The notes under the pieces: generated by a model
The model's database searches: none
Told to the model about the DNA's origin: nothing
Seen by the model: the letters and a program-made list of their open reading frames with translations, nothing else
Virus record (IMG/VR): IMGVR_UViG_3300033074_000711
Location: 91,931-155,930 of that record
Length of the DNA: 64,000 nucleotides
Origin: a virus
Lineage: Duplodnaviria > Caudoviricetes
Direction: 5' to 3' (one strand)
Program-made: the position numbers and the translations under genes
Part shown: one piece after another, positions 22,113 to 63,790 of the stretch
Layout of the letters: each line of letters opens with the position of its first letter
How positions within the stretch are numbered: the first letter of the stretch is position 1

Positions 22113-22219
22113 AAATTTAAATAACGAGGAAAAAAATGCAAAAAAATAAAAAAGAATTAGAAGCTTTATTAGTTAAAACTAAAAAAGTTAAAAAAATTTT
22201 AGAAAATCAATTGAATGAA
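22113..22219 (+). repeat. RBS+leader cassette, about 105 bp, repeated at about 22914-23019
   Basis: aaatttaaataacgaggaaaaaa-ATG...ttagaagctttattagttaaaactaaaaaagtt...ttgaatgaa shared; similarity ends at the NE codons. Confidence 0.8.
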
Positions 22220-22495
22220 AAATATAATCCTGATGTACTTTCAAAATTAGAATCTAATTATAATCAACTTATAAAGTTAAATCAACAATATAAAAACACA
22301 TTAGATATATTTAATGAATTTGTTAATAACAGCAAAAAGTATGAAAATCAAATTAAAGATGATATAAAAAAATATAAAAGCGGTGGTTTAGAAGATGAGA
22401 TTATAGATATATCAACAAAATTAAAAGATAATGTAAATTTTATGTTATATTATTTAAAAGGAATTAAAAAAATAGCAGAAGACCTTGATTGGTAA
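22136..22495 (+). CDS. long-leader protein (putative internal head protein); paralogue of 62954..63340
   Basis: MQKNKKELEALLVKTKKVKKILENQLNE leader. Confidence 0.65.
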   Translation: MQKNKKELEALLVKTKKVKKILENQLNEKYNPDVLSKLESNYNQLIKLNQQYKNTLDIFNEFVNNSKKYENQIKDDIKKYKSGGLEDEIIDISTKLKDNVNFMLYYLKGIKKIAEDLDW

Positions 22496-22556
22496 AAAAA
22501 TTAATTTAAATATTATTTTTTTTTGTTAATTTATAAAAATAATTAAATATAAGAGC

Positions 22557-22925
22557 ATGTATATGAAATTAAAGAATTTATTAGAATCTGAGGATAAGTA
22601 TAATAAAAATCAAGTCAGAACAGATATAATAAATGCTTTAATAAAAAAATTTAAAACAGAATATGGTATAATTTTATCAAAATATGATATTAATGAGTGG
22701 ACTGATACAGTTTATTTTAAAAATGTAAAAAATGTTTTTAATAATAAAATTTCAGAACCAAGCATTGAATTTGTTTTTGAGTTACATATAGATTTAAGCA
22801 CATGGTATGGTGATTGTTATGTTTCTAGCTTTTATATGAATTTTGAAAAATTTAATTTACCTGGAAAAATAATAATAAACGATGAAATTTTAGAGTATGA
22901 TGTTAAAAAGAAAAAATTTAAATAA
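22557..22925 (+). CDS. short-leader protein (MKLKNLLE)
   Basis: Leader ending in E, unique body. Confidence 0.6.
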   Translation: MYMKLKNLLESEDKYNKNQVRTDIINALIKKFKTEYGIILSKYDINEWTDTVYFKNVKNVFNNKISEPSIEFVFELHIDLSTWYGDCYVSSFYMNFEKFNLPGKIIINDEILEYDVKKKKFK

Positions 22926-22935
22926 CGAGGAAAAA

Positions 22936-23364
22936 ATGGAAAAGAACAAAAAACAATTAGAAGCTTTATTAGTTAAAACTAAAAAAGTTCAAAAGATTTT
23001 AGAGAGTCAGTTGAATGAAGAAGATTTTAACAAAGATAATGAGTTATTAGCAATTAAACTATTAAATAAAGAACTAAAACAATTAGGTTTCCCAACGGTG
23101 AAGGAAAATCATGATTTTTATGATGATTTTAAAGTAAGTTATTTAAAAGATATTTTAAAAATTGGTAATATTTTTAAATATGCTTTTGATGAGTTTGGTT
23201 TTGTTGTGACTAAATCTGTGATGTCTGGGTATAACGGTGTTTATGAGTTTAGCATCGGTACAGAATATAAAAAACCACATTCAGCATTTAGTAATAATGA
23301 TTTTTTCTATAAAATTACAATTTCACTACCAGAAAATAAAGCTACAGTAAAAAAATTAAGATAA
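22936..23364 (+). CDS. long-leader protein
   Basis: MEKNKKQLEALLVKTKKVQKILESQLNE; GAGG RBS places start at 22936. Confidence 0.65.
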   Translation: MEKNKKQLEALLVKTKKVQKILESQLNEEDFNKDNELLAIKLLNKELKQLGFPTVKENHDFYDDFKVSYLKDILKIGNIFKYAFDEFGFVVTKSVMSGYNGVYEFSIGTEYKKPHSAFSNNDFFYKITISLPENKATVKKLR

Positions 23365-23374
23365 AATAATTTTA

Positions 23375-23401
23375 GGCAGTTGAAATACACTGCCAATTTT
23401 T
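23375..23401 (+). terminator. probable intrinsic terminator
   Basis: ggcagt-N8-actgcc hairpin then aattttt. Confidence 0.5.
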
Positions 23402-23438
23402 ATAAAATTGTTACATAAAAAGTTATAACGAGAAAAAA

Positions 23439-24410
23439 ATGCATAAAGAAAGATTAAAATTATTAATCTCACTTGCAATAAATCAATCTGATATTAAAAT
23501 CAAAAACGATGAAATATTAATCTGGTGCCCTATCTGTAATAAATCCAGAAGTAATAAAAAAATTTCATTAAATATTAACCATAACTCAAAAACATTTGGT
23601 AAGTGGCATTGTTGGGTTTGTGAAAATACAAATAATGCTAAAGGCAATACAATACAATCTTTATTTAAATTTTTTAATTCTACTGAAAATTATTATATTC
23701 AATTAAAAATATTATTAGAAGAATTAAATATAACACAAGATTTTAAAACTGAAGAAAATATAGAAGAAGAAAAAGTAATATTTCCAACAAATGAAATAAT
23801 ACCTATAAATAAACCAAATAGTAAATATTTATTTGAAATAACAAATGCTGTAAATTATTTAAATAATAGGGGAATAGATAAAACATTAATAAATGTTTAT
23901 AATATGCATGTTGGTGTTTTAGGTGATTATCAAAATAGAGTTATAATACCATCTTATGATAATAACTATAAAGTTAATTACTTTACAGCAAGAAGTATGT
24001 ATAATACTAAATTAAAATACTTAAATCCAAATGTATCTAAAAATAAAATAATCTTTGAAAATATTTTAAATTTTAATTATCCTATATTATTAGTTGAGGG
24101 AATGTTTGATGCTATAACAGCCAGAAGAAATAGTACGGCTTTAATGGGTAAAACTGTTAATGATAAATTATTTCAAAAAATTAATAATAATAGCACTCCA
24201 GTTATAGTGTGTTTAGATAAAGATGCAAAAAATAATGCTATAAAAATTATTGAAACTTTTTTAGAACATAATATTGAAACATATTATATACAAATGGATA
24301 AAAAAGACCCTAATGAAATTGGGTTTGAAAAATTTATAAAAAATTATTATAATAATAAAGTTAAAGTTAATTTTGATACATTGATTAAAATAAGATTAAA
24401 CTTTTTATAA
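23439..24410 (+). CDS. DNA primase (DnaG-type)
   Basis: CPIC...WHCWVC Zn finger; YLNNRGI, NRVIIP, KYLNP, TOPRIM LVEGMFD and LDKDA, KDPNE. Confidence 0.9.
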   Translation: MHKERLKLLISLAINQSDIKIKNDEILIWCPICNKSRSNKKISLNINHNSKTFGKWHCWVCENTNNAKGNTIQSLFKFFNSTENYYIQLKILLEELNITQDFKTEENIEEEKVIFPTNEIIPINKPNSKYLFEITNAVNYLNNRGIDKTLINVYNMHVGVLGDYQNRVIIPSYDNNYKVNYFTARSMYNTKLKYLNPNVSKNKIIFENILNFNYPILLVEGMFDAITARRNSTALMGKTVNDKLFQKINNNSTPVIVCLDKDAKNNAIKIIETFLEHNIETYYIQMDKKDPNEIGFEKFIKNYYNNKVKVNFDTLIKIRLNFL

Positions 24411-24462
24411 ATTTTTATATTTATAAAATATAACAATAAATTTAAATAGAGGATATCAAAAA

Positions 24463-24810
24463 ATGCAACAGGAAAAAGCACAAAAATTATTAACAAAAGT
24501 TAAAAAGTTAAAAAAACTTTTAGAAAGTAAATTGAAAGAATATTATACTTCACCAATGAGCACAAAAGAATTAATGAAAACTGTATTAAATGATAAAGAA
24601 CTATTAAATAAAGTTATAAAAAATTCTAAACAAATTATTCCAGGTAAAACATATTTATGTATCACAACTGCTGAAGGTAGTGATGAAATAATTGCAACAA
24701 CTATGAGAATCGGGCAAACAGTTAGAAAAGCATATATAGGCTTACATGAACCAGTTACTAAAAATAATGTTGTTAAGGCTATAAAAGGTGATATGCCAGA
24801 AGATTATTAA
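24463..24810 (+). CDS. long-leader protein
   Basis: MQQEKAQKLLTKVKKLKKLLESKLKE; late motif at 24416. Confidence 0.65.
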   Translation: MQQEKAQKLLTKVKKLKKLLESKLKEYYTSPMSTKELMKTVLNDKELLNKVIKNSKQIIPGKTYLCITTAEGSDEIIATTMRIGQTVRKAYIGLHEPVTKNNVVKAIKGDMPEDY

Positions 24811-24833
24811 TAAAATTTAATAAAAATTTTTAT

Positions 24834-24873
24834 ATTTATAATAGATACTATATTTTTAGTATCTATTATAAAT
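24834..24873. repeat. 17-bp perfect inverted repeat overlapping late motif
   Basis: atttataatagatacta-tatttt-tagtatctattataaat. Confidence 0.7.
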
Positions 24874-24896
24874 TAGTTAAAATAGGAGACGTTCCG

Positions 24897-25331
24897 ATGT
24901 TATCAGAAATATTACAAAAATTAATTGATGAAATGTTTTATAATTTATCTAAACCAGAAGTACAAAATTATAAAAGCAAATACACAAAGATATCATTTAT
25001 TAAAGAATTTTGCACAATTAAATTAGGCACACATAGAAGAGCAGGTCATACAACAGCCGCTTGGTCATTAAATTTAAGGCAAAAGTATAATATTTTATAT
25101 GTGATTAAAAATAAAAAAGCATATAAAGATTATATTACAACAAATTCAAATGTTATTGAATTTGTAGATAATTTCGATTTTTATACTAATTTTGAAAATT
25201 TAATAATTTCTAAAAAAATAAATGTTATTATAATAGACCCATCATTTTATTTATCTGATTCAATAACTAAACAAATTATAAATAATTTACCGATAGAACA
25301 CGGAAATATTATTTTAGTTTTATTACAATAA
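24897..25331 (+). CDS. hypothetical protein, degenerate P-loop-like
   Basis: RRAGHTT and VIIID resemble Walker A and B. Confidence 0.5.
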   Translation: MLSEILQKLIDEMFYNLSKPEVQNYKSKYTKISFIKEFCTIKLGTHRRAGHTTAAWSLNLRQKYNILYVIKNKKAYKDYITTNSNVIEFVDNFDFYTNFENLIISKKINVIIIDPSFYLSDSITKQIINNLPIEHGNIILVLLQ

Positions 25332-25347
25332 AATAGGAAAAAGTTAT

Positions 25348-28300
25348 ATGGTTAAAAAAATAGTTCACATATCAGATATTCATATTAGATTAGTTTCAAG
25401 ATTAAAAGAGTATGAATATGTTTTTAACTCGTTATATAATAAACTTCAAGAAATTAAAGATGAATTTATAATAGTTTTAACTGGTGATATATTTCATTCA
25501 AAAACTGAATTATCACCAGAATCAGTCACATTAGCTAAAAATTTATTTATTAGTTTATCTAATATTGCTCCAACATTTATAATACCAGGTAATCATGACG
25601 CTAACTTATTCAATGATAATAGAATGGATTCTATAACACCAATTATAGATACCATAAAATTTTCTAACAATATTTTACCATTAACTTATTATAAAAATTC
25701 TGGTGTATATAATTATAAAAATTTAGATTTTGTTCATTTATCTGTTTTTGATGATGTTGATAAATATTCAGAAATAATTTCAAATTATGAAAAAAATGAA
25801 AATGTTAGCATAATTTTATATCATGGTGTTGTTCAAAATTGCAAATTACCAAATAACATGTTATTAGCCGATGGTTTATCTAATAACATATTAGAACAAG
25901 CTGATTTAGCATTACTTGGTGATATACACTTATTTCAATATATGAATGATAATAAAACTATTGCTTATCCTGGTTCTTTAATATGTCAAAATTACGGTGA
26001 AAAATTAGAACATGGTTTTTTAATATGGGATGTTGAAAATAAAGATAGTGAATTTATAGAAATTTATAATAAATATTCTTATTGTAATGTTTTTGAAAAT
26101 AATTATGATAAAATAAATATTCCAGAAGAAGGTAAAATAAAATTAAACGTTAATAATGATATTGATGATAGTAAACTAAATTCTATTGTTTTTAATATAA
26201 AACAAAAATATCCAAATTTAACTGATTTTACTATAAACAAAATAAATTCAAAAGAGAATACCCAAGTTTTAACTAAAAATGAAATTTTAGATTTGATTGA
26301 TATTAAAGATACTTTTCAAATAATTTTAAAATATATACAAAAAAATAATAAACTTACACAAGATGATATTGATATTTTGAGAAAAATGCACTCAATTTAT
26401 GAAAATTCAATAGTTATTGATGAAAAATATAATCACAAATGGCATCCTATAAAATTTGAATGGAGTAATACATTTTCATATGGTGAAAATAATTGCTTAG
26501 ATTTTAGTAACATTGATAATAACATTATAGGAATTTTTGCACCGAATAGAACTGGTAAAACGTCATTTATTGAATCATTAACATATACGCTTTTTGATAA
26601 AATTAATAAAGATTCTAATTTATCTGGTATTTTAAATGTTGATTCTGATATGTTTAAATGCAGATTAACATTAAATTTAAACGATGAAATTTATTTAATA
26701 GAAAAAATAGTTAAAAGAACTAAAACAGGTGCATCATTAAGTAACTTTAAATTTGAAAAACAAATTGATGGTGTTTTTGAATCATTAAATGATGTTGATA
26801 AAAATGCTACTATAAAATTAATGCGAGAATTAATCGGCACATATGAAAACTTTATTTTAACAGCTTATAACTCACAATTTAAAAATAAAAGTATTATAGA
26901 TATTGGTGATTCTGATAGAAAAACTTTAATAAGTCAATTTATAGGTTTGGATGTTTTTGATAAATATCACGAACTTTGTAAAAATGTTATAAAGGAATTA
27001 AATGCTGTTATAAAATTTAAAAATATAGATAAATTGAACTCAGAATTACAAACAAATGAATTAGATATAGAGCATACTAACAAATGTATTGAAGATATAC
27101 ATAAAAAACTAACAGACTTTGAAGAGAGTATAGAAGAACAACAAAAGCTAATAAATGAATTAGAGTTACAAAAAAATTTAATACAAATAGAAAACATAGA
27201 TATTGATAAAATTAATTCCGAATATTATAGTATTAATAATAAAATAAAAGAATTAAATGATAACAATATAAAATCAAATGAAAAATTAAACTTTTTAGAA
27301 AAATCTATAGAAGATATAAAAATAAATGAAGAAGAAATAGGTATTATAGAAAAGAATTATTTTGAAATATTAAAGTTATCTGATGAAGAAAAAAAACTAT
27401 CAAATGATTTTAATTTATATGAAATTAAAATTAAACAAAAGATTGATAAATCTGACAAACTGTTGGTTTTAGAATATGATGAAAATTGTACATATTGTAT
27501 GAATAATGTTTTTGTTAAAGACGCAATAAATGCCAAATCTGAGATACAAAGAGATTTAGATGAAGCTACTAATTTAAAAAATAAATTAGATGAAATTAAA
27601 AAACTAACTATAAATAAGAATGATATTGAAACTAAATATTTTAGTTTAAATAATAAATTAAAAGAATTAAATAATCTAAAGCAACTAAAAATAAATGTTA
27701 ATAATGAAATTTCTAATAATAATATTAAATTAAATGAATTAAATAATAAATTATTAGAAATCACTAAAAAACAAGAGCAATATGAAAAGAATAAAATTTT
27801 AATACAGGATAAATTTTTATTAGAGCAAGAAATCTACCAAAAAAATAATAAATTAAATATTGATAAATCATCTTACAAAACTTTAAATTCAGATTTACAG
27901 CGTGAAATAGCTAATAAGAGTTATAAAGAAAATCAAATGGATAATTTATTAAAAGAAATAGAAGAATATAATAATACAAAAAAATTAGTAGATTTATATA
28001 ATATTTACTTACAAGCCACACATAGAGATGGTGTTCAATTAGATATTATTTCAAATATTTTACCATATTTGCAAGCCACTATAAATAATATGTTAAAAAA
28101 TGTAGATGAATCACAAGTAATATTAGAATTAGATAAAAATAAAGATATTTCTATATTTATTAATTATGGAGATAAGGTTTGGAGTACTGGATTAATAAGC
28201 GGTATGGAAAAGTTTATGCTTTCATTAGTAACTAGAACAGCACTAATGAAAATTTGTAATATACCACATCCAGATTTTTTAATAATTGATGAAGGCTTTG

Positions 28301-28470
28301 GTGTTTTAGATGCTGATAACTTTGGTAATATTAAAACATTGATGGAATATTTAAAAACTGAATTTAAGTTTATTATGTTGGTTTCTCACATTGCACAAGT
28401 TAAAGAAATGGCTGATGTTGTAATTAATATTGATAAAATAGATAATAGAAGTAAATTATATTATGCTTGA
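25348..28470 (+). CDS. fused SbcD(Mre11)-SbcC(Rad50) recombination nuclease (gp47/gp46-like)
   Basis: DIH, GDIFH, GNHD, LGDIH, YPGS; then APNRTGKT, coiled coil, CTYC zinc hook, SGMEK, IIDEGFGVLD, VSH. Confidence 0.9.
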   Translation: MVKKIVHISDIHIRLVSRLKEYEYVFNSLYNKLQEIKDEFIIVLTGDIFHSKTELSPESVTLAKNLFISLSNIAPTFIIPGNHDANLFNDNRMDSITPIIDTIKFSNNILPLTYYKNSGVYNYKNLDFVHLSVFDDVDKYSEIISNYEKNENVSIILYHGVVQNCKLPNNMLLADGLSNNILEQADLALLGDIHLFQYMNDNKTIAYPGSLICQNYGEKLEHGFLIWDVENKDSEFIEIYNKYSYCNVFENNYDKINIPEEGKIKLNVNNDIDDSKLNSIVFNIKQKYPNLTDFTINKINSKENTQVLTKNEILDLIDIKDTFQIILKYIQKNNKLTQDDIDILRKMHSIYENSIVIDEKYNHKWHPIKFEWSNTFSYGENNCLDFSNIDNNIIGIFAPNRTGKTSFIESLTYTLFDKINKDSNLSGILNVDSDMFKCRLTLNLNDEIYLIEKIVKRTKTGASLSNFKFEKQIDGVFESLNDVDKNATIKLMRELIGTYENFILTAYNSQFKNKSIIDIGDSDRKTLISQFIGLDVFDKYHELCKNVIKELNAVIKFKNIDKLNSELQTNELDIEHTNKCIEDIHKKLTDFEESIEEQQKLINELELQKNLIQIENIDIDKINSEYYSINNKIKELNDNNIKSNEKLNFLEKSIEDIKINEEEIGIIEKNYFEILKLSDEEKKLSNDFNLYEIKIKQKIDKSDKLLVLEYDENCTYCMNNVFVKDAINAKSEIQRDLDEATNLKNKLDEIKKLTINKNDIETKYFSLNNKLKELNNLKQLKINVNNEISNNNIKLNELNNKLLEITKKQEQYEKNKILIQDKFLLEQEIYQKNNKLNIDKSSYKTLNSDLQREIANKSYKENQMDNLLKEIEEYNNTKKLVDLYNIYLQATHRDGVQLDIISNILPYLQATINNMLKNVDESQVILELDKNKDISIFINYGDKVWSTGLISGMEKFMLSLVTRTALMKICNIPHPDFLIIDEGFGVLDADNFGNIKTLMEYLKTEFKFIMLVSHIAQVKEMADVVINIDKIDNRSKLYYA

Positions 28471-31400
28471 GAAAAAAAGTAACAGACAATATTTAGAAAA
28501 AGTTAATGTCTTATTAGAGGATGTTGATAATACTATTTTTAATATTACCAACATTCCTCAAATATTATACAGTGGTAATAATCATTTTTTAATTTATGGC
28601 TCAGATAAATTAAAACAAAATTCTGAAATAGCTATAGAAATTTTAGATAGTAATAATAATACAATTTATTACGAAATTTCAAAGGACTATAATTTTGGCG
28701 GTAATAGATTAGTGTCAATAAAAATATTTGATTATGTTGAAAATGGTTTAGCAACATTGACAATATTAGGTATATTAAACACAAATGATGTTGAATGGAA
28801 AAATAAATATAATGTTAAAACAACAAGAAAAATAATAGTTGATAAAACATTAAATAATAACAGTGATATTATTTTTAAAAATTTTCCAACAGCTAGTATT
28901 AATGAAGTTTTTAGAACAGATTTAAATACAGAAAATTCAACAATTTATTCAAATTACAACTCAGGTTCGATTAGCACATATATTGCAACTAATGTTAAAA
29001 ATACCAATTTAAATTATAGTACAATGAAATTGGTAAGTGGTTCGCTTAATGAAAAAATGTTAAATTCTAAAATTGAAATATATAGTGGTAGCATAACACA
29101 TAGTGCAATTATAGATAGGATAGTTAATGAAACTTATTGTTATATAAAACCAAATTATTTAGAAAATGATATTGTAAAAACTTTTGACAATTGTAATTAT
29201 AATATACAATACATTAATAGTACATATCAAGAAACATTTTTATCATCATCTTATGCTGAAATTGTATTAAACAATTTAGAAACATTATCAGGTAAAATAG
29301 ATAAAATTAAAGTCTTTTCAAAAAATATAAATAGAAATGAAGATTATAAGTTATTAGGAGATTATCCACTATTATCATGGAATAATTATTATGCGTGGAG
29401 TGGTTCATTATTAATAGATACTGGTGTATTAAAAAAATATTGGAGTTCATATTATGATAATGGTGGTTTAATCTCCACAAATTACATTATAACAGAAAAT
29501 GATAATGTCTTATTAAATTCTATACAAATTAATACAGAACCACATGAAAGTACCGCATATGCTTATATAGTTAATAATACACCTTTTACTGTTATAAAGG
29601 GCAATAAATATGTTTTAGAATTTGATAGAGCAGTTTTATTAAAAGATTTATATAACACTGATTGTAATTTTAAAATAAGTGCATATGGCACAAGCTTATA
29701 TAATTCAGATGAAACATTATTATACGAAGAATATAATATAGATAATACTGTTATATCACCAACATATTTGGGTAAAAAATTCATAGTGTTTGAACCAAAT
29801 AAAACAGGTACATTATTTATTAAATTTATTTTTGGTGCTGGCACATGGTATTTATCTAATTTAAAATTATATGATTATTTTGATGTTGGTATAAATCCGA
29901 ATAATACAAAATTATATATTCCTATTAATAATTTTAAAAGAAATGAACAATACGTTTTTAAAATAGAATATAAAAATATAAATAATTTATCATCACAAAA
30001 TTATTCTGAAATAAATTTACCATTAAATTTTATAGGTAATCCTAAATACATACAGTTAGATGATAATGTTTTAGACGGTAAATTAAAAATAGGTAATAAT
30101 ATAAATTCAAATGGTATAGAAATATCAGGAAAAGAAACAAACGGTTCTTATATATCATCAGTTGGTTACAAAGGATATTATAGTGCTAGTAATAATATAG
30201 GTGATTCTGGATTTTTAATTTATAGTGGGTCTGTTTTAAATACATTAACAAATGAGTATGAAAATGGTGTTGGTTTAGAATTACACGGTGGTTATAAATC
30301 AGGTAGTATGAGATTTAAAGCAGATGGTCTAAATAGTTTTTTAGAAATAACTGGTTCAATATTTGCTGAAAATGGTTATTTTTCTGGTTTGTTAAGCGCA
30401 AGTACGGGACACATTGCTAGTTTTTATATAAATGAGACAAGCATAACTTCTAATAATAATACTAATACATCAAGATTTATTTTAAGTCAATCTGCTAATA
30501 TTAGAGATATTGGTTTGCATTTAAATGATGGTAATAATGTTAATAGATTACAAATAGGATTAGTAAATACAACAGGTAGCAAAATATCGGATTATGGTAA
30601 TATAGCATTAACAAGTAGTGCAACTAATTCAGATAATATGGCGACATTATCAAAATGGTCGATTTTAGATGATACTACACCTGGTATTGCTAGATTAGAT
30701 ATGAGTTCTTATACATTAACGAGTGCCAGTATTTCTATAAATTCAATACTAATTAATGAATTAGATTTTATACCTGCTGGTGGTTATTTATATACAAACA
30801 ATACTAATAATAATTTTAATTCTGTACCATCTGGTCAATATATATTAAGTGTTAAATCATATCAATCTTCTGGAAAAGATAGAGCAATTTTTAAAATAAT
30901 AATAAAAGATGATAGTGATAATGTGTTATTTAATAGCAATAATTATGTAACCAATAGTGATGAATATAATTTACATCAGTTTGCTTTTACAATAAGTGAA
31001 ACAAAAAATTTAAGAATATATTATTATTGTTCTTTATTAAGTTATAATTCTCAATTTTATTTATTTGATACAAAAATACAACCATATGTTAGTAGAATGA
31101 GTATAACAGAACGTGGTTTACTTTTATCAACATCTCCGAATAAATATATATTATTATCAGATTTTTTTAATTTAATCGGAATTAATGAAATTCAAACTGA
31201 TATTATATATGCAAATAAAATTATTTCTGATGATTTAGTTAAAATTTCTATAAATACTGATAATACAATTTTAAATTATTTTAATATTACTGGCAGTTTT
31301 GTTGATAATAATAATAATGATATTTCAAACATAAGTGCTAAGTGTTTTGATTTTTGGATATCAAAAAAACCATATGGTCAAATAAGCACAATAGGCACAT

Positions 31401-31630
31401 CTAATATAGAATTAAAAAATTTATATAATTGTGGGTTAATAACAAATTATACAACCAGTTCGGTCGAAGATTATATTTATAAATTTAGTAATGTTAGTCA
31501 ATCTGGCTTAATCAGTTCTAGTATAAATAATATATTTTCATTTTCAATTTATTCTAGTTTACCAGTAGGTGGTTATATAAACATTTCATATAATAATAAA
31601 ATTTATACAGAATATTTAGATATTGCTTAA
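28463..31630 (+). CDS. large virion structural/tail protein
   Basis: N/S/T/G-rich beta composition; SSVGYKGY, GFLIYSGS, GVGLELHG, LEITGSI.A..G fibre motifs. Confidence 0.55.
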   Translation: MLEKKSNRQYLEKVNVLLEDVDNTIFNITNIPQILYSGNNHFLIYGSDKLKQNSEIAIEILDSNNNTIYYEISKDYNFGGNRLVSIKIFDYVENGLATLTILGILNTNDVEWKNKYNVKTTRKIIVDKTLNNNSDIIFKNFPTASINEVFRTDLNTENSTIYSNYNSGSISTYIATNVKNTNLNYSTMKLVSGSLNEKMLNSKIEIYSGSITHSAIIDRIVNETYCYIKPNYLENDIVKTFDNCNYNIQYINSTYQETFLSSSYAEIVLNNLETLSGKIDKIKVFSKNINRNEDYKLLGDYPLLSWNNYYAWSGSLLIDTGVLKKYWSSYYDNGGLISTNYIITENDNVLLNSIQINTEPHESTAYAYIVNNTPFTVIKGNKYVLEFDRAVLLKDLYNTDCNFKISAYGTSLYNSDETLLYEEYNIDNTVISPTYLGKKFIVFEPNKTGTLFIKFIFGAGTWYLSNLKLYDYFDVGINPNNTKLYIPINNFKRNEQYVFKIEYKNINNLSSQNYSEINLPLNFIGNPKYIQLDDNVLDGKLKIGNNINSNGIEISGKETNGSYISSVGYKGYYSASNNIGDSGFLIYSGSVLNTLTNEYENGVGLELHGGYKSGSMRFKADGLNSFLEITGSIFAENGYFSGLLSASTGHIASFYINETSITSNNNTNTSRFILSQSANIRDIGLHLNDGNNVNRLQIGLVNTTGSKISDYGNIALTSSATNSDNMATLSKWSILDDTTPGIARLDMSSYTLTSASISINSILINELDFIPAGGYLYTNNTNNNFNSVPSGQYILSVKSYQSSGKDRAIFKIIIKDDSDNVLFNSNNYVTNSDEYNLHQFAFTISETKNLRIYYYCSLLSYNSQFYLFDTKIQPYVSRMSITERGLLLSTSPNKYILLSDFFNLIGINEIQTDIIYANKIISDDLVKISINTDNTILNYFNITGSFVDNNNNDISNISAKCFDFWISKKPYGQISTIGTSNIELKNLYNCGLITNYTTSSVEDYIYKFSNVSQSGLISSSINNIFSFSIYSSLPVGGYINISYNNKIYTEYLDIA

Positions 31631-32283: not shown

Positions 32284-32290
32284 TTTTCAT

Positions 32291-32325
32291 TAACTATTTA
32301 CTTTTTATAAAAAATGTGTTATATT
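32291..32325 (+). promoter_or_regulatory. repeated sigma70-like promoter
   Basis: About 60 bp from here differ by 1 nt from the copy at 51662. Confidence 0.75.
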
Positions 32326-32361
32326 ATATATGTAAATTAAATTAATTATTGAGGTTACAAA

Positions 32362-36064: not shown

Positions 36065-36191
36065 ATATATATTGATAATAAATACTATGTTAAAAATATA
36101 AATAAAAAATTATACTGTTAATAATAATTAATATATCTTTTTATAATTTTTTATATTTATATAAAATAAATTAAATAAACATTGTTAAAAT

Positions 36192-36548
36192 ATGATTAAA
36201 TTACAAAATTTATTAAATGAAGCGGTAAAAACTTTAGTAAAAAGTGTCAATATAAGATATAATATTGTCACAACAATACATTCTAACGATAGATTAAATA
36301 GACCTAATTATCAACAAATAAATCAAAAACAAATAGAAGATGCTATAAATATTATTATAAATGAAATTGCACAAGATGTTTTAATGGGTGCTATAAAAAA
36401 TAGAAATAATATTTATATAAAATCTGGTAATTTAAATATAATAGCAATAGTTGAGTTTTTGGGACATAGTTTTGACATAGTTGTAAAAACTGCAATTATA
36501 AAACCAGATTTTTACGCTAAAGATGTTGCAAAAAGTTATAATATTTAA
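36192..36548 (+). CDS. short-leader protein (MIKLQNLLNE), possible RelE/BECR-like fold
   Basis: TIHSNDRLNR...VVKTAI pattern; late motif at 36152. Confidence 0.55.
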   Translation: MIKLQNLLNEAVKTLVKSVNIRYNIVTTIHSNDRLNRPNYQQINQKQIEDAINIIINEIAQDVLMGAIKNRNNIYIKSGNLNIIAIVEFLGHSFDIVVKTAIIKPDFYAKDVAKSYNI

Positions 36549-41534: not shown

Positions 41535-42365
41535 ATGAAAATATCACATGAAGTACCATATACACTGATGAATGAATCTCTTGAATTTAACGATTATGAT
41601 TACGCACTAGTTCATTTATTTGAACAAAATGAAAATTATTTTCAATTTTATTATGACTCGATTCATAAACGAAATCGAGTTGTTTTAATAGATAATAGCG
41701 TTTTTGAATTGGGAAAGGCGTTTGATACTCATAAATTCATTGACCAACTCTTCAGAATAAACCCGACGAATACTACTGAATTTGTTATCCCTGATAGCTT
41801 GAGTGACATGCGTTCGACGTTACGGCAAATGGATGAGTTTTTAAAAATACTACCTAAAGACGTGAAAGGTAAAAAAATAGGAGTTGTGCAAGGAAACTCC
41901 AAAGAAGATATTATAACATGCTATAAACATATGTCAGAAGATTATCGCGTTGATAAAATCGCGATTAATTTTACAAATGACGTGATGTCACAATTTATAC
42001 CAATTAATGTTCGGTTAAATAAATCTTCCCGTTATTTATCCATACGCGGTCGATATTATTTTATAAAATATTTAATAGAAAATGATTTGATCAATAATAA
42101 AAAACCACATCACTTACTAGGATGTGTGTTACCTCAGGAATTTTCATTTTATAAAGACAAGAAGCGATATGGGTTTATAGAGTCCTGTGACACATCAAAC
42201 CCAGTTGTCCACGGAATTCACGGAATTAAATATTCCGATAATGGATTGGAAGAAAAATTAAATATAAAATTAGTTGACATAATATCCACACCAATGGATG
42301 TTATTGATCGTTTTCGTCATATTATATACCATAATATATACACATTTAAACAATTTTGTGAGTAA
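41535..42365 (+). CDS. TGT/DpdA-like TIM-barrel protein (candidate 7-deazaguanine transglycosylase)
   Basis: IDNSVFE, VIPD, GVVQG, HHLLG, SCDTS parallel the TGT barrel motifs; in que cluster. Confidence 0.55.
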   Translation: MKISHEVPYTLMNESLEFNDYDYALVHLFEQNENYFQFYYDSIHKRNRVVLIDNSVFELGKAFDTHKFIDQLFRINPTNTTEFVIPDSLSDMRSTLRQMDEFLKILPKDVKGKKIGVVQGNSKEDIITCYKHMSEDYRVDKIAINFTNDVMSQFIPINVRLNKSSRYLSIRGRYYFIKYLIENDLINNKKPHHLLGCVLPQEFSFYKDKKRYGFIESCDTSNPVVHGIHGIKYSDNGLEEKLNIKLVDIISTPMDVIDRFRHIIYHNIYTFKQFCE

Positions 42366-43762: not shown

Positions 43763-43797
43763 TAACTATTTACTTTTGTTAAATAATTTATTATATT
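43763..43797 (+). promoter_or_regulatory. repeated sigma70-like promoter
   Basis: taactatttactttt...tatatt. Confidence 0.7.
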
Positions 43798-43809
43798 ATA
43801 AATATAAAA

Positions 43810-44106
43810 TTGAGTATTATTATGAAAATGAAAGAAGTATTAAAAGAATCAAATTATATTTTATATCACAAAACTTATACTGATGCTGTATCTGAATTTT
43901 TAAAGTATATAGAAAAATCTGGCTATACATATGATAAAGATGAAGTTGCTGATGCTATAGGTATAAATTCTGTTAGACCATCAGAAGGAAGAACAACAAA
44001 GGTTTCAATACCAATATACAAAAATGGAAAAATACAAAGAAAATATGCACACATGCAGGTATATGGTAATAGAACTAATTATGAATTAAATTGCTATATA
44101 AGTTAA
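43810..44106 (+). CDS. short-leader protein (MKEVLKE)
   Basis: Leader ending LKE; likely start 43822 or 43828. Confidence 0.6.
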   Translation: MSIIMKMKEVLKESNYILYHKTYTDAVSEFLKYIEKSGYTYDKDEVADAIGINSVRPSEGRTTKVSIPIYKNGKIQRKYAHMQVYGNRTNYELNCYIS

Positions 44107-44116: not shown

Positions 44117-44812
44117 ATGAAATTAAGCATATTGTATAATGATATTTTTTATGGGTCACTATTAAACGAAGGTGTTTTTGATAAACACATATTTAAATGT
44201 ATATTTTTAGCAGGTGGTTCTGGTGTTGGTAAATCATTTATTAGTAATAATGCATTAAGTGGTTATGGATTAAAGGTTGTTGATTCAGATAAAGTTTTTG
44301 AGATTTTAATGAATAAACAAAATTTATCACTAAAAATGCCAGATTCTGAAAAAACAGAAAGAGATGCTGTTAGAGATACCGCTAAAAAGATAACGGTTAA
44401 GTTTAGAGATACTTATATCAATAATAGATTAGGTATAATAATAGATGGAACTGGAAAAGATGCCGATGAATTAATAGGTTTATCTGAAAAATTAAAAGAA
44501 ATAGGTTATGATACATTTATGGTTTTAGTAACAGCAGAAGAAGATATAGCCATTGAACGCAATGCGAAAAGGCCGAGAAGTGTACCAGTTGATTTATTGA
44601 AAAAGATTAGAAAACAAGTATTAGGTAATATTAGTAGATATTCCAATTATTTTGGAAATAATTTTAGACTTTTAGATACTAGTGATGAATCAAAAACAAG
44701 TGATATTAAAACTAACTTATCTAAAATTATTAGAAATTTTTTAAATAAAGGTATAACTAATCCATCAGCTAAAGTTTGGATTGATTCTGAACTAGAAAAA
44801 AGAAAAAGATAA
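44117..44812 (+). CDS. P-loop kinase (zeta-toxin/AAA_33-like) with LLNE leader
   Basis: LLNE|GVFDK, FLAGGSGVGKS, IIDGTG, ERNAKRPRSVP. Confidence 0.7.
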   Translation: MKLSILYNDIFYGSLLNEGVFDKHIFKCIFLAGGSGVGKSFISNNALSGYGLKVVDSDKVFEILMNKQNLSLKMPDSEKTERDAVRDTAKKITVKFRDTYINNRLGIIIDGTGKDADELIGLSEKLKEIGYDTFMVLVTAEEDIAIERNAKRPRSVPVDLLKKIRKQVLGNISRYSNYFGNNFRLLDTSDESKTSDIKTNLSKIIRNFLNKGITNPSAKVWIDSELEKRKR

Positions 44813-49606: not shown

Positions 49607-49662
49607 TACATTTTTTAGTTTTATTTTATATTTATTTATATTATAATATAATAGAGGATTAA

Positions 49663-50103
49663 ATGAAACAGGAAGAAATCAAAAAGTTAATCAAAAGAAC
49701 TGAAGGGGTTCAGAAAATTTTAGAAAACCGATTGAACGAAGTATCAGAAACAGATGATTATAATTTTAGAAATATAAAAAGTATTTTTGAAAAAATAGCA
49801 AAAAAAGTTTATTCTGAAACAAAGATAAAATTAGAAATAACAGATAATGATATTAATAATTTATTAAAAATGGACCCGAGTAAAAGACTAGGTCAAGGTG
49901 TTAAATTAAAACAACCTAACGAAACTGTTAAGTGTCCTAATACTGGTGGTTCAATAACATTTACATATTCCTTTGAGCTTGTTTTTATAAATGGTAAACC
50001 AAATATATTATTTGATTCAAGTATTTCTAAAATGTCTGGAATTTTTGAACATTATATTTCACAAGATGAAACAGTAATGTTAAAGTTTAACGAAAATAGT
50101 TAA
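49663..50103 (+). CDS. long-leader protein
   Basis: MKQEEIKKLIKRTEGVQKILENRLNE; late motif at 49627. Confidence 0.65.
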   Translation: MKQEEIKKLIKRTEGVQKILENRLNEVSETDDYNFRNIKSIFEKIAKKVYSETKIKLEITDNDINNLLKMDPSKRLGQGVKLKQPNETVKCPNTGGSITFTYSFELVFINGKPNILFDSSISKMSGIFEHYISQDETVMLKFNENS

Positions 50104-50115
50104 AATAATTTTAAT

Positions 50116-50150
50116 TAACTATTTACTTTTATAAAATAATTTATTATATT
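50116..50150 (+). promoter_or_regulatory. repeated sigma70-like promoter
   Basis: Followed by tgtaaattaaattaa and agaggttataaaATG. Confidence 0.75.
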
Positions 50151-50186
50151 TATAATGTAAATTAAATTAATTATAGAGGTTATAAA

Positions 50187-50711: not shown

Positions 50712-50717
50712 TAAATA

Positions 50718-50788
50718 ACAACCATCATTTAATTGGATAGGATCTACATTCAGGTGTAGTATAAGAGTTCGAATCTCTTCGGTTGTTA
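50718..50788 (+). tRNA. degenerate tRNA-like element (anticodon loop TTCAGG; identity unclear)
   Basis: Acceptor acaacc/ggttgt, D-loop AATTGGATA, stem ctaca/tgtag, perfect T-arm aagag-TTCGAAT-ctctt; about 3 nt short of canonical. Confidence 0.55.
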
Positions 50789-58029: not shown

Positions 58030-58040
58030 AGAGGTTTTAA

Positions 58041-58710: not shown

Positions 58711-58733
58711 AATTTATTAAAACGGAGGAATAA

Positions 58734-59352: not shown

Positions 59353-59432
59353 ATTAAAAGAGTAAAAAATTAAAAGTTAATGATTTATATATAGATTTAT
59401 AATATTAAAATTAAAAAAACAGGAGTTAAATA

Positions 59433-59711: not shown

Positions 59712-60001
59712 AAAAATTATTTAATACAAACATATTAGAACAATATAAAATACAAGAATTATTAGAAATTATTAATAATTGTTTTGGCAAAAAAGCACAT
59801 TTACATAGTTGTAGTGAAGAAAACATTGATGGCTATTTATATGACCATATAAATATACAATTAGCAGAATATTTAGATAGTAATGATATGGAAGTTTTTA
59901 TAAATAAAATGCAGTCTAAATATTTATTAGAACATATGTATCATAAATTAGTTTTTTCAAATCAATTATTAACAGTAACATTTGCTGTATTAGGTGAATA
60001 A
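59708..60001 (+). CDS. hypothetical protein
   Basis: Operonic ORF. Confidence 0.5.
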   Translation: MKKLFNTNILEQYKIQELLEIINNCFGKKAHLHSCSEENIDGYLYDHINIQLAEYLDSNDMEVFINKMQSKYLLEHMYHKLVFSNQLLTVTFAVLGE

Positions 60002-60003
60002 AA

Positions 60004-60294
60004 ATGATAAAAAAATATAGAAAAAAGCCAGTTGTAATTGAAGCTATTCAATATAATAATTTAAATATTTCTGAGATTGAAAATTTTGTTGGTAAAAAAT
60101 TAAATAAAGAATTAGAAAACGTTAGTTCATATAATGCTAATATGTTACCGCCAATATTTAGTATAATTATAGAAACTCTAGAAGGTAATCATAAAGCATT
60201 ACCAGGTGATTATATAATTAAAGGCATACATGGTGAATTTTATCCTTGTAAACCAGATATATTTAAATTAACATACGAAGAAGTAGATGAGTAA
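60004..60294 (+). CDS. conserved phage protein (KKPVVIEA/PGDY family)
   Basis: YRKKPVVIEAIQ...TLEG...PGDYIIKG..GEFYPCKPDIF..TYE. Confidence 0.75.
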   Translation: MIKKYRKKPVVIEAIQYNNLNISEIENFVGKKLNKELENVSSYNANMLPPIFSIIIETLEGNHKALPGDYIIKGIHGEFYPCKPDIFKLTYEEVDE

Positions 60295-60595
60295 TCTTAA
60301 TATAAATACACCAGGATTTAAAGATAAAATATTAAAATATTCTAACTTAGATTTTAGTTTTAATTACAATGATTTATATGTTTATGGTTTAAAATTGTCT
60401 GAATTTGAACACGATTGGTTATGTTTTGAAAACAACGAACTTATTAAAGAAGTATTTAACTTAATAAATACTTATTTTACATATACAGATATAACAAATA
60501 TATTAACAATCGAATATCATTCTAAGCACTTAATAACTAAATATTATGATGGTGTTATTTTTATAAACTGTAAATTAAAAGATAAAAATGAATAA
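60287..60595 (+). CDS. hypothetical protein, tandem paralogue of next gene
   Basis: FK...LKY..L.F.F ... G..FI.CKLK.K.E. Confidence 0.6.
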   Translation: MSNLNINTPGFKDKILKYSNLDFSFNYNDLYVYGLKLSEFEHDWLCFENNELIKEVFNLINTYFTYTDITNILTIEYHSKHLITKYYDGVIFINCKLKDKNE

Positions 60596-60887
60596 TATAA
60601 AAGAAGACGAGTTTAAACAGAGAACATTAAAATACACCGATTTAAAATTTTATTTTCATAAAAATTGTTTATGGGTAGTTGGTGTAAAATCTTCAAAAGG
60701 TAAGCGTTTTTGGAGATATGTAGAAAATGATTTTTCAAAAGAGATAGTTAAATTAGTAGAAGAGTATTTTAATTATTCGTATGTAGATAATTTTATAAAA
60801 CCAGAATGCTCAGATGATGGTGTATTAAAAACAGTGCAAGGTGGTATTGTTTTTATAGATTGTAAATTAAAAAATAAAATGGAGTAG
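60588..60887 (+). CDS. hypothetical protein, tandem paralogue of previous gene
   Basis: Shares the same N- and C-terminal motifs as 60287..60595. Confidence 0.6.
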   Translation: MNNIKEDEFKQRTLKYTDLKFYFHKNCLWVVGVKSSKGKRFWRYVENDFSKEIVKLVEEYFNYSYVDNFIKPECSDDGVLKTVQGGIVFIDCKLKNKME

Positions 60888-60889
60888 TT

Positions 60890-61675
60890 ATGAATTTAAA
60901 AGATGTTAATGAATTATATATTAATGGTAAAATTGAATTACATTTAACTTTCCCACATCTAATAAAGAAATTAGAAAAACCACCAGATAAAATAGAAATT
61001 AAAAAACTTAATGTTTTTTATAAAAATAACTATATTGGTTATGTACCATATAAATTAACAAAAGAATTAATGGGTGAGTATTATGATAATCTTTTATTAA
61101 AACTATTAGAATTAATTAATAAACCAAGATATAACATTGCTATATCGGGTCCGCATTGTAGTGGTAAGAGTACATTAATAAATGAATTAAAAAAATTAGA
61201 TGAATGTAAAGAATTTTACTTTACCGAAAGCCCATCAACAAAAATGGTTGACAAAGTTAACCTATCAGAAAATAGTAATGATTCACAGCAATTATTATAT
61301 TTATTTAATACTGTTAAAACATTTGATGATACTATAGATAAAACAATAGTATATGATAGATGTGCATTTGATGTATATGTATATTCAAAATATTTATATA
61401 ATAAAAATAAAATAACAAAAGAAACTTATGATGATGTTTATAGAACACATAAGCGTTATTTAAAACAAATAAATAAAATAATATTATTATTAAATTATAG
61501 TAGATTAATATCAAATAATATTAGGTCAATGGATATAGAATATTTAAAAGAAATAAATAAGTTATTTTTAGAAACATTAGAAAAAGATGAACTATTAAAA
61601 AAGAAAGTTATTGTTATAGAAAGTAATAGTAGTGTAGAAGATAAGGTAAATGAATTTTTAAAAATATTACAATAA
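60890..61675 (+). CDS. P-loop nucleotide kinase (AAA_28-like) with extra N-domain
   Basis: GPHCSGKST, YDRCAFD..VY. Confidence 0.65.
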   Translation: MNLKDVNELYINGKIELHLTFPHLIKKLEKPPDKIEIKKLNVFYKNNYIGYVPYKLTKELMGEYYDNLLLKLLELINKPRYNIAISGPHCSGKSTLINELKKLDECKEFYFTESPSTKMVDKVNLSENSNDSQQLLYLFNTVKTFDDTIDKTIVYDRCAFDVYVYSKYLYNKNKITKETYDDVYRTHKRYLKQINKIILLLNYSRLISNNIRSMDIEYLKEINKLFLETLEKDELLKKKVIVIESNSSVEDKVNEFLKILQ

Positions 61676-61680
61676 TAATT

Positions 61681-62082
61681 ATGAAATCAAATCTTAATTG
61701 TGATAGTATTACTAAAATGGTTTTTGAAATTGGTGAAATTTTAAAATATTATTCACTTGATAGCTTGCGTCAAATTCATAGTGATTATATAATATCTTAT
61801 AGAGGTTATAAAAAACCACACATACGTAAGTTAATAAATAGTATAATAGTAACATTTGATTTTAGATTTGTTGGTGAGCATATATTTAGTGATTTATCAG
61901 GTAATAGTTATATTTTACCAAATTCATATGCTACTATTAATAAGCGTTATATGTTTAACTTACATATTAAAAATAACAGTATGTTATTATTAAATGGAAT
62001 TTTAAATAATAAAGAATATGATGATTTAGATATTTTAATAAAAGGTTATAATATGAATGATATAGTTAAAAAATATTTATGA
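61681..62082 (+). CDS. hypothetical protein
   Basis: ATGA overlap with methyltransferase. Confidence 0.5.
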   Translation: MKSNLNCDSITKMVFEIGEILKYYSLDSLRQIHSDYIISYRGYKKPHIRKLINSIIVTFDFRFVGEHIFSDLSGNSYILPNSYATINKRYMFNLHIKNNSMLLLNGILNNKEYDDLDILIKGYNMNDIVKKYL

Positions 62083-62807
62083 TAAAAATTATTAAACAAG
62101 ATAATTTAGAATTATTACAAACTTTACAAAATAATTCTATACAATTAATTTATTGTGATATTCTATATGGCACTGGCAATAAATTTAAAAATTACATTGA
62201 CTTGAAACCAATGCGAACAGAGATAGAAAATCATTATATACCACGTTTAATTGAAATGAAACGAGTTCTTAGTATTAATGGTTCAATATTATTACAAATG
62301 GATTATAGAATTAATCATTGGGTTCGGTGTTTATTAGATGATATATTTGGTTATAATAATTTTATTAATGAAATAATATGGCATTATAATTCAGCACCAA
62401 GAAAAAAGAATAACATTAGAAATAATCACGATACTATTTTATGGTATGCTAAAAATAATAACAATTATATTTTTAATGAAATAAGAGAACCATATTCAGA
62501 AACAGCACCAAGAGGATATGCTAAAGAAAAATATTATCACCCAGATGGTAAAGTTATAAGTAATGTTTGGCAAATAAATATGCTAGGTCAAAATGATAAA
62601 ACAGAACGATGCGGTTATGATACACAAAAACCAATTAAACTAATTGAAAGAATAATAACAATGTGCAGTAATGAAAATGATATAGTAGCTGATTTTTATT
62701 TAGGAAGTGGTACTACAGCGGTTGTATGTAAAAAATTAAATAGAAATTTTATAGGTTGTGATATAAACCAAGAAGCTGTTGATATTACTGTTAAGAGATT
62801 ATTGTAA
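62079..62807 (+). CDS. DNA amino-methyltransferase, beta class (m6A/m4C), atypical motif IV
   Basis: IQLIYCDILY, NEIIWHY, HDTILWY, YDTQKP..LIERII, DFYLGSGTT, RNFIGCD. Confidence 0.8.
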   Translation: MIKIIKQDNLELLQTLQNNSIQLIYCDILYGTGNKFKNYIDLKPMRTEIENHYIPRLIEMKRVLSINGSILLQMDYRINHWVRCLLDDIFGYNNFINEIIWHYNSAPRKKNNIRNNHDTILWYAKNNNNYIFNEIREPYSETAPRGYAKEKYYHPDGKVISNVWQINMLGQNDKTERCGYDTQKPIKLIERIITMCSNENDIVADFYLGSGTTAVVCKKLNRNFIGCDINQEAVDITVKRLL

Positions 62808-62897
62808 AATAAATAAAACATATTTATACATAATTCGTTATTAGGTGTATAAATATGTCGGTAATTGTTTATGATGTGTTTATGTGTTATATAAAAT

Positions 62898-62940
62898 AAA
62901 AAAAGCACGCTGTTTAATTAAAAATAACGTGCTTTATTAT
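62898..62940. terminator. probable bidirectional terminator between convergent units
   Basis: aaagcacg...cgtgcttt inverted repeat flanked by A/T runs. Confidence 0.6.
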
Positions 62941-62953
62941 TTAAAAGCTTTAA

Positions 62954-63340
62954 TTAACTAAAATCAAGATTATCTGCAACATTTTTTATATTTTTTAAAT
63001 TATTTTTTAACACTTCATTCATAGTTTCCAAATAGTCATTAACACCATCTCTATTCGGGCTTTCTATATCTTTGTCTTTATATGCACCTTTTTTATATTT
63101 TTGAACAGCATCTTTATACGTTTTTTCATAATATTTACATTCTGATGCAAAATTATTAATTGCTTCAAAATGTTTTTTATACTGCGAATATAATTTCGTA
63201 AACTCACTAATATTTTCTTCTAATCTCTCCAATATTTCTTCGTTTACTTCTTGGTTGGATTTTTCATTCAATTGACTTTCTAAAATCCTTTGAACTTTTT
63301 TAGTTCTTTGAATTAACTTTTTAATTTTTTGCTGTTCCAT
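62954..63340 (-). CDS. long-leader protein; paralogue of 22136..22495
   Basis: MEQQKIKKLIQRTKKVQRILESQLNE; body ends IKNVADNLDFS vs IKKIAEDLDW. Confidence 0.7.
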   Translation of the reverse strand: MEQQKIKKLIQRTKKVQRILESQLNEKSNQEVNEEILERLEENISEFTKLYSQYKKHFEAINNFASECKYYEKTYKDAVQKYKKGAYKDKDIESPNRDGVNDYLETMNEVLKNNLKNIKNVADNLDFS

Positions 63341-63383
63341 TTTTTACCTATTTTTTTATTATTTATAAATATTTTAATTAATA

Positions 63384-63728
63384 TTAATTCTTAACATACA
63401 TTGCTTTACCGAAACTTTTGTTAAACTTACGAGCATATTTGTCTATAAGATTTAACACTTCTTCTTTAGAATTAAAGTATCTTAAATAAAATTTTTGAAG
63501 AAATTTATACAAATCAATATCACCATACTTATAATATTCTACATAAAGTATTATTGCAATTTCAGCGTCTTTTAATCCATTTGTAAAATCTTCAAAAGCA
63601 TTACGTGCATCAATGTAAATGCTTTGTTTATTTGCCCAGTGTTTAGATGAAACTAACATAGCCGCAAATGCATCTGCTGGTGAAGAAAATTTATTGCCAT
63701 TTTCTTTTAATACTTCTTGTATCTTCAT
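63384..63728 (-). CDS. short-leader protein (MKIQEVLKE)
   Basis: Leader ending LKE. Confidence 0.6.
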   Translation of the reverse strand: MKIQEVLKENGNKFSSPADAFAAMLVSSKHWANKQSIYIDARNAFEDFTNGLKDAEIAIILYVEYYKYGDIDLYKFLQKFYLRYFNSKEEVLNLIDKYARKFNKSFGKAMYVKN

Positions 63729-63790
63729 ATTATTTTTTTAATCTTTGTTTTGTTTAATAAAGCTTCTAATTGTTTTTTATTCTTTTTCAT
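63725..63790 (-). CDS. stand-alone 21-aa leader peptide ORF
   Basis: MKKNKKQLEALLNKTKIKKII*; AGGGA RBS, late motif at 63830-63838; ATGA overlap with 63728 start; absent from the ORF track. Confidence 0.55.
   Translation of the reverse strand: MKKNKKQLEALLNKTKIKKII

Follow-up and report, generated by a model that had tools for sequence, protein, structure and literature searches.

A long N-terminal leader carried on a mobile promoter cassette in an uncultured T4-like phage, a candidate capsid-targeting propeptide

A basic, helical N-terminal leader of 26-28 residues, ending in ILE-x-x-L-[NK]-E, heads a series of small, mostly unrelated proteins encoded in a 64,000-nucleotide stretch of viral DNA (hereafter the window), which corresponds to bases 91931-155930 of the IMG/VR record IMGVR_UViG_3300033074_000711. 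The leader family and its spread as a cassette, together with promoter and ribosome-binding site (RBS), are real and lie well beyond chance. On balance it is probable that the leader represents a lineage-specific, extended form of the T4-type capsid-targeting propeptide, and that a 19-residue variant and several short tags belong to the same system. The record, a linear virus of 155,930 bp (about 67% complete by estimate), is very AT-rich (20-31% G+C) and, judged from its genes, is that of an uncultured T4-like phage, the host of which probably belongs to the Bacteroidota. Its closest cultured neighbours by capsid protein are Flavobacterium phage immuto (47% identity), Microcystis phage Mel-JY01 and Rhodothermus phage RM378, and the closest contig in IMG/VR has 59% identity; at the DNA level, no match was obtained by megablast of 10 kb against 50,697 phage records. 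Bare positions refer to the window, positions preceded by "genome" refer to the whole record, L002 denotes a segment of this record, and L084 and L023 denote compared loci.

Six full copies of the long leader are present in the record. A hidden Markov model (HMM) built from the copies and searched against the six-frame translation of the whole record recovered the five window copies with E values from 2e-15 to 3e-12, exactly at the positions at which a first-pass annotation of this DNA had placed them (22136, 22936, 24463, 49663 and, on the minus strand, 63340). The sixth, at genome 49409(-), is located outside the window, internal to a frame of 205 residues, yet it possesses its own GAGG site and ATG. 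The free-standing copy previously noted at 63790(-) is present as well, in a truncated form. The window copies are the following (the gene with its leader at 63340 is called 62954 below):

22136..22495, plus strand: long-leader gene 1, 119 residues, leader at residues 1-28, helical body paralogous to that of 62954 (HMM E 1.9e-13)
22936..23364, plus strand: long-leader gene 2, 142 residues (leader HMM and DNA comparison)
24463-24810, plus strand: long-leader gene 3, 115 residues, 26-residue leader ending in L-K-E, late-like promoter at 24414-24424 (HMM; promoter matrix score 14.7)
49663-50103, plus strand: long-leader gene 4, 146 residues, orphan cargo, late-like promoter at 49625-49635 (HMM E 2.4e-15)
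62954..63340, minus strand: long-leader gene 5, 128 residues, paralogue of 22136 (HMM E 2.1e-15)
63725..63840, minus strand: truncated leader (63790 to 63725, 21 codons) with a late-like promoter at 63830-63840 (HMM E 0.009; matrix score 17.3)

In the leader alignment Met1, Leu11, Leu22, Glu23, Leu26 and Glu28 are invariant. Residues 1-17 are variable, still basic and helical, and residues 18-28 are nearly fixed as V-[QK]-[KR]-[IL]-L-E-[SN]-x-L-[NK]-E, so that every long copy contains two candidate protease motifs, [IL]-L-E at residues 21-23 and L-[NK]-E at residues 26-28. The net charge ranges from +2 to +6 and the helix is predicted to be amphipathic, with a heptad-like spacing; in a single-sequence AlphaFold model of 22936, residues 2-25 are drawn as one helix, at an overall pLDDT (predicted local distance difference test) of 44. 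The diverged copies differ at 17-29 of about 80 nucleotides (nt), and the pattern is kept through K/R, I/L and N/S replacements and synonymous changes. Such retention indicates that the peptide is conserved, not the DNA alone, and that it is under selection. The proteins behind the leader are unrelated by BLASTP, with the exception of 22136 and 62954 (36% identity, E 1e-14), as had been described. A supposed C-terminal copy at 5061 was instead discarded, since the leader HMM returned an E value of 1.2 and the DNA similarity is only AT-rich noise:

5061..5324, plus strand: DUF3008 protein (Pfam DUF3008, E 2e-11), C-terminal helix loosely leader-like, rejected as a copy

The portable unit of promoter, RBS and leader that the first-pass annotation proposed is borne out by sharp mosaic junctions. 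Between copies, the RBS and the leader have a DNA identity of 0.8-1.0, which drops to background directly behind the codon for the last Glu, and it is this exact coincidence that identifies the leader as a recombining cassette. For 22936 against genome 49409, compared in 21-nt windows, identity amounts to 0.86 immediately before the ATG, is 0.95 over the 84 nt of the leader and has dropped to background 21 nt further on (for unrelated 21-mers genome-wide, the mean is 0.32 and the 99.9th percentile 0.67). The same profile is displayed by 22136/22936 and by 49663/62954. Furthermore, the two cassettes of the 19-residue variant, 28 kb apart, are near-identical over the stretch from the early promoter to the Glu of codon 19, directly beyond which they diverge. 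At 63790 the truncated copy, an open reading frame (ORF) of 21 codons, retains promoter and RBS, and its stop overlaps the ATG of the short-tag gene at 63728; it is probably a recombination scar, which now serves as a promoter and upstream ORF.

An all-against-all comparison of the N-termini of the record's proteins revealed only four kinds of shared N-termini, namely a tail-fibre family, two full-length paralogue pairs (a helix-turn-helix (HTH)-like pair and a second duplicated pair), the leader family and the 19-residue variant. The latter, M-D-L-K-K ... L-L-E-N-K-L-N-E, heads the genes at genome 50424(-), which adjoins the capsid gene, and genome 22179(-), and is related to the long leader with an E value of about 1e-4 in a small N-terminus database. 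As to the short forms listed by the first-pass annotation, those at 22563, 36192, 43828 and 63728 are present, while the site at 44117, which lies at residue 18 of a kinase-like ATPase, is backed by nothing. The four short-tag genes of the window are:

22563..22925, plus strand: 8-residue tag ending in L-L-E, then Ser; flanked in its operon by two long-leader genes (tag alignment)
36192-36548, plus strand: 10-residue tag ending in L-N-E, then Ala; late-like promoter at 36150-36160 (matrix score 21.7)
43822/43828-44106, plus strand: tag ending in L-K-E, then Ser; early-type promoter, region 43764..44106; the weakest member
63384..63728, minus strand: 9-residue tag ending in L-K-E, then Asn; between the truncated leader and 62954 (tag alignment)

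The tag of 22563 can be aligned to the 24463 leader at residues 17-24, so that the long leader contains a core of the short-tag kind; in the same way, short tags of the MK-x-x-x-L-[NK]-E type match its second half, and the tag of 43828 aligns with that of 63728. A loose rule, [LI]-x-E ending at residues 7-11, applies to 24 of 226 proteins and is not enriched, the rate elsewhere being about 8%, whereas the tighter [LMVI]-L-[NK]-E ending at residues 7-12 was observed six times against 0.85 expected, with a pattern that was chosen after seeing the data. One of these six is the scaffold protein; its N-terminal I-L-K-E was dropped as a tag, because its relatives carry Gln, Asn or Lys in place of the Glu.

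The head genes of the record agree with a T4-type system. A gp21-like protease was found at genome 53362-53955 (Peptidase_S77, 79 bits, above the cut-off), which aligns to the T4 gp21 structure 5JBL with E 6e-11 and has His74 and Ser129/130 at the catalytic positions, and the major capsid protein, of the gp23 type, matches the T4 gp23 structures with E 6e-24. Its propeptide ends in Q-L-L-A-E before S-T-R-V-G-G-D-G, an L-x-E site of the expected kind, and the propeptides of 77 relatives have L-L-E-N-Q and, two residues further on, Q-L-[IL]-x-E. In T4 the site presumably has its counterpart in the cut before A-E-I-G-G-D-H-G; since the propeptide segment is not reached by the HMMER alignment to T4, the capsid cut site is read from the motif. 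Moreover, there are six instances of the pentapeptide [IL]-L-E-[NS]-Q in the proteome, where 0.24 would be expected from composition; they are in four leaders, the capsid propeptide and one fibre, so that the leader ends like the propeptide of the capsid protein itself.

Tagged genes also stand within the head operon, with three or four directly after the capsid gene. This position is occupied by a gene with the 19-residue variant, a short-tag gene, the 205-residue frame mentioned above and a very basic peptide of 43 residues. The 205-residue frame (L002:9068-9685(-), that is genome 49068-49685) has a short-tag-like start, a DUF5661 domain (Pfam E 4e-11), the internal long leader with its GAGG and a tail of 85 residues, an arrangement that would fit either a two-part protein jointed by a protease site or two nested genes. 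The 43-residue Lys/Arg-rich ORF (L002:8914-9045(-), genome 48914-49045) is the last of this post-capsid tagged operon, possibly an internal peptide that binds DNA. The scaffold position (L002:12201-13202(-), genome 52201-53202) is taken by a protein with an isoelectric point (pI) of 4.1 and 91 acidic residues in 160; it includes three exact copies of a 15-residue acidic amphipathic repeat, which are candidate docking sites for the leader.

Two recurrent intergenic signals were recognized. The first, which precedes many small genes, is a highly conserved block of the early type: A-A-C-T-A-T-T-T-A-C-T-T-T-T and then, after about 17 nt, T-A-T-A-T-T. This block continues into a shared leader and an A-G-A-G-G-T-T-A-C-A ribosome site (for example at 6566-6635, 32284-32361 and 50104-50186), and it has 47 matches in the record with up to two mismatches, 25 of which are within 130 nt upstream of a gene start on the same strand. 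The second signal, a T-run then TATATTTAT(A), precedes the sheath, tube, portal, scaffold, fibre and head-spike genes. These structural-gene sites alone served to train a matrix, which at a cut-off of 14 bits yielded eight further gene-proximal matches. Five of these lie in front of tagged genes: 36192, with the best score (21.7 bits), genome 42272, the 63790 unit, 24463 and genome 50424. In the case of genome 42272 the match, at 42300, was assigned by eye to an internal start, MKLEPLLKE, with the promoter placed 28 nt upstream inside a longer called ORF.

The statement that most tagged genes stand behind a motif of their own needs to be narrowed. The TATATTTAT motif is located 38-50 nt upstream of 22136, 24463, 36192, 49663 and 63790 and, allowing one mismatch, about 30-50 nt before genome 50424, 22179 and 42272. 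No full motif precedes 22563, 22936 or 62954, and all three are situated just downstream of a tagged gene equipped with one; for 43828 an early-type promoter alone was found. In some cassettes the two signals are combined, as before the first long-leader gene:

22057..22135, plus strand: dual promoter, early -35/-10 block overlapped by the T-run and TATATTTAT, with a GAGG site

The 21-nt core of this dual promoter (22073-22093) has three occurrences in the 156-kb record, each before a leader gene, and the same dual promoter heads two different leader types. Tagged genes are also clustered: the 15 of them form six pairs of neighbours, where 0.93 would be expected (p about 1e-5), a figure that is weakened by the fact that the short tags were partly picked by eye.

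In related phages the long leader itself was not detected. The leader HMM gave no match at E 1 in 80 related head loci, a profile search of 5.8 billion proteins returned no homologue, and nothing emerged from exact DNA pattern scans of IMG/VR and the JGI metagenomes or from a peptide-pattern scan of IMG/VR. Leaders of a comparable kind are common there: in the relatives, including Flavobacterium phage immuto, small proteins encoded from portal to capsid start with helical leaders of 10-21 residues ending in hydrophobic-x-Glu, often with one leader in common to several unrelated neighbouring genes, and at locus L023 leader-bearing genes occupy the same intergenic position after the capsid gene. 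The gp67/68-like core protein of the relatives has a propeptide of 18-21 residues that ends in L-x-E right before a conserved Gly-rich motif. When 835 distinct N-termini of relatives were ranked by the leader HMM, these leader types topped the list. The leaders of the core protein and of the small head-module proteins resemble the first half of the long leader (at no more than 7.5 bits), being helical stretches of 16-21 residues, rich in Lys, Glu, Leu and Ile, with a hydrophobic-x-Glu end, in genes between portal and capsid; they differ in being shorter and mostly confined to the head module.

The cargo proteins range from 61 to 229 residues, and the bodies of 22136 and 62954 are helical and coiled-coil-like. 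As regards function, PHROGs and Pfam gave nothing and the ESM Atlas no usable match; two cargo queries returned no homologues, and a full HMMER search with a 22136/62954 profile found none among 1.84 billion representatives. The sole outside relative is a syntenic 736-bp NCBI contig of GCA_030154505.1 (P0007/L084), in which the homologue of 22563 is 95% identical and the counterpart of 22936 keeps 24 of the 28 leader residues and 79 of the 114 residues of the body. The cargo body is thus 69% identical (L084:240-668 against 22936-23364) versus 95% for the neighbouring gene, a single comparison that suggests fast evolution of the cargo.

The closest known parallel is the capsid-targeting sequence of T4, carried by IPI, IPII, IPIII and Alt (PMC9026906; PMC3012670; PMC8442874). 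Cleavage by T4 gp21 takes place behind L/I-x-E, foreign proteins can be directed into the T4 head by no more than the ten N-terminal residues of IPIII, and the tag has been proposed as the way in which T4-like phages package varied proteins (PMC9026906). In both systems an N-terminal L/I-x-E tag is borne by unrelated small proteins alongside a protease of the gp21 family, and a conserved tag is joined to diverse, fast-changing cargo; the internal proteins of T-even phages are diverse and counter host defences, with only the tag in common (PMC3012670). The T4 tag MKTYQEFIAE (PMC8442874) shares with the tag of 63728 the M-K, the Q-E, two hydrophobic residues and the final Glu, a resemblance seen by eye only, over ten residues, a length too short for statistics. 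On the other hand, the leader described here is 26-28 residues long (19 in the variant) instead of 10, and only the short tags, of 7-10 residues, fit the T4 length. It offers two possible sites of cleavage, and its sequence is not significantly similar to that of the T4 tag. Tagged genes number about 15 in two thirds of a genome as opposed to four in T4, the cargo is not uniformly basic, and the present system is known from sequence alone.

Repoila et al. are said to have described, in 1994, polymorphic T-even internal-protein loci at which recombination in the conserved leader swaps the cargo. The loci share with the present cassettes a conserved 5' region followed by unrelated downstream coding sequence, with junctions that imply recombination within the leader, and they differ in that the cassette is here dispersed at at least eight sites in one genome and has a defined dual early and late promoter. 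The principle of a conserved tag with swapped cargo has also been stated for T-even phages (PMC3012670). Longer propeptides with multiple Glu-ending cleavage sites are known from the giant phages phiKZ, 201phi2-1 and SPN3US, in which many head proteins are processed by a diverged gp21 homologue, with S/A/G-x-E motifs, no single shared leader and a different phage group (PMC9026906; PMC5694885; PMC10052503). The redundant cut sites of giant-phage propeptides (PMC9026906) would explain the presence of two sites in the long leader.

Taken as a capsid-targeting propeptide, the leader would act as follows. The tagged genes would be transcribed from the promoter type of the head and tail genes, with an early promoter added in three cassettes. 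During prohead assembly the basic amphipathic helix would dock the protein on the very acidic scaffolding core, and the gp21-type protease would cut the leader off behind residue 23 (I-L-E), residue 28 (L-[NK]-E) or both, in parallel with the trimming of the capsid protein after L-L-A-E. The mature cargo, of 60-230 residues, would remain in the head and exit with the DNA, while homologous recombination would move the block of promoter, RBS and leader and thereby tag new cargo. Loading into the capsid, as the first-pass annotation had proposed, appears to be the most economical reading, consistent with five independent kinds of circumstantial evidence; the protease, the capsid L-x-E site, the structural-gene promoter motif and the clustering agree with the proposal, and the copies at 5061 and 44117 fall away from it. 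A more elaborate version can be imagined, in which the leader is a composite of two tandem tags, the first half of the type found on the relatives' core protein and the second a short tag, with an end that copies the last helix of the capsid propeptide and docks on the three acidic repeats of the scaffold. The composite, the short tags and the dual promoter would between them load about 15 or more fast-evolving orphan proteins (about 7% of the genes seen) into the head, and tag lengths would set copy number, position or release order; in this full form the proposal is unlikely.

Several observations weigh against capsid loading. The long leader is nearly three times as long as the 10-residue T4 tag, its likeness to the leaders of relatives is non-significant, and L-x-E near an N-terminus is common by chance in a proteome rich in Lys, Glu and Leu. 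The pI of the cargo extends from 4.5 to 9.6, so that these proteins are not uniformly basic as T4 internal proteins are. The residue next to L-N-E is Glu, Lys, Val or Tyr, not a small one as at the capsid site; the I-L-E site alone is followed by Ser or Asn, which better resembles the Ser of the capsid site, and I-L-E may therefore be the main cut site. As for expression, the promoter is termed late solely from its position before structural genes, no late sigma factor (gp55-like) was found with Sigma70_r2 or among ten ORFs scanned with PHROGs, three cassettes carry an added early promoter and 43828 has an early promoter only. Finally, most copies are found among replication genes, such as those for a RusA-like resolvase, a primase and an SbcCD-like nuclease.

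The early promoters of the three cassettes and the location among replication and recombination genes would sit well with a leader whose helix mediates docking or oligomerisation with a partner distinct from the prohead core, for example a host enzyme, a phage chaperone or the protein itself, and that is neither removed nor involved in packaging. The predicted amphipathic helix with heptad-like spacing, as well as the helical nature of the 22136 and 62954 bodies themselves, point in the same direction. Such a helix would leave unexplained the two terminal protease motifs, the pentapeptide in common with the capsid propeptide, the promoter motif of structural genes and the copies that stand beside the capsid gene in the head operon, and this explanation is regarded as rather unlikely.

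The DNA-level evidence raises a different alternative, namely that what spreads is an expression cassette (promoter, RBS and first codons), selected for its strong signals, with the peptide as a passenger devoid of any targeting role. The abrupt end of the DNA identity after promoter, RBS and leader, the truncated 63790 copy that now functions only as promoter and upstream ORF, and the single dual promoter in front of two leader types are what such a cassette would produce. Against it, the older copies (24463, 49663 and 62954) have lost most of their DNA identity and kept the residue pattern, 22936 and genome 49409 possess the leader without the promoter, and a passenger would not be expected to retain two L-x-E sites in every copy. 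Folding of the leader mRNA did not exceed that of shuffled controls (z from -1.4 to +0.75) and no shared structure was found, which also makes an RNA element unlikely. The cassette explanation is accordingly held to be quite improbable. Least probable of the three, by a small margin, is that the tagged proteins are prohead assembly or core components comparable to T4 gp67/gp68, degraded or expelled at maturation and not injected: the relatives' core protein, encoded between portal and protease and provided with a helical L-x-E propeptide, does rank among the most leader-like N-termini, a gp67/68-like protein is absent from its usual place in this record (genome 53955-53958, between a 293-residue protein and the protease) and the 22136/62954 bodies are coiled-coil-like, whereas essential core proteins are conserved and these cargo proteins are orphans, the one orthologue pair has a fast-changing body (69% versus 95% for its neighbour) and several bodies contain few or no further L-x-E sites.

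The concept of a capsid-targeting tag on exchangeable cargo is known from T-even phages (PMC3012670; PMC9026906) and is less new than the first-pass annotation implied. What is new here is the composite form of 26-28 residues, the end resembling the capsid propeptide, the dedicated dual promoter and the number of tagged orphan genes. If the leader is indeed a capsid-targeting propeptide, distant T4-like phages of the environment would make far wider use of T4-type tagging for delivery with the DNA, and the tag would be seen to allow a long and composite form as well as transport on a mobile cassette of promoter, RBS and leader. The tagged genes would then constitute a list of proteins acting in the first minute of infection, candidates against host defences, and the leader would be a second, longer natural tag beside the T4 tag that already loads foreign proteins into capsids. 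Should the capsid reading be wrong, the cassette would still be a clean example of modular 5'-end exchange between phage genes.

Two further features of the window were recorded. A tRNA-like gene at 50717-50788(+) is given a two-base anticodon by ARAGORN (a 6-nt anticodon loop) and scores 25.5 bits with the Rfam tRNA model, below the gathering score of 29. The region 25348-31630 contains two very large adjacent ORFs, of 1040 and 1055 residues, and in the first of them only the first 230 residues match a phosphoesterase (SbcD/gp47-like).

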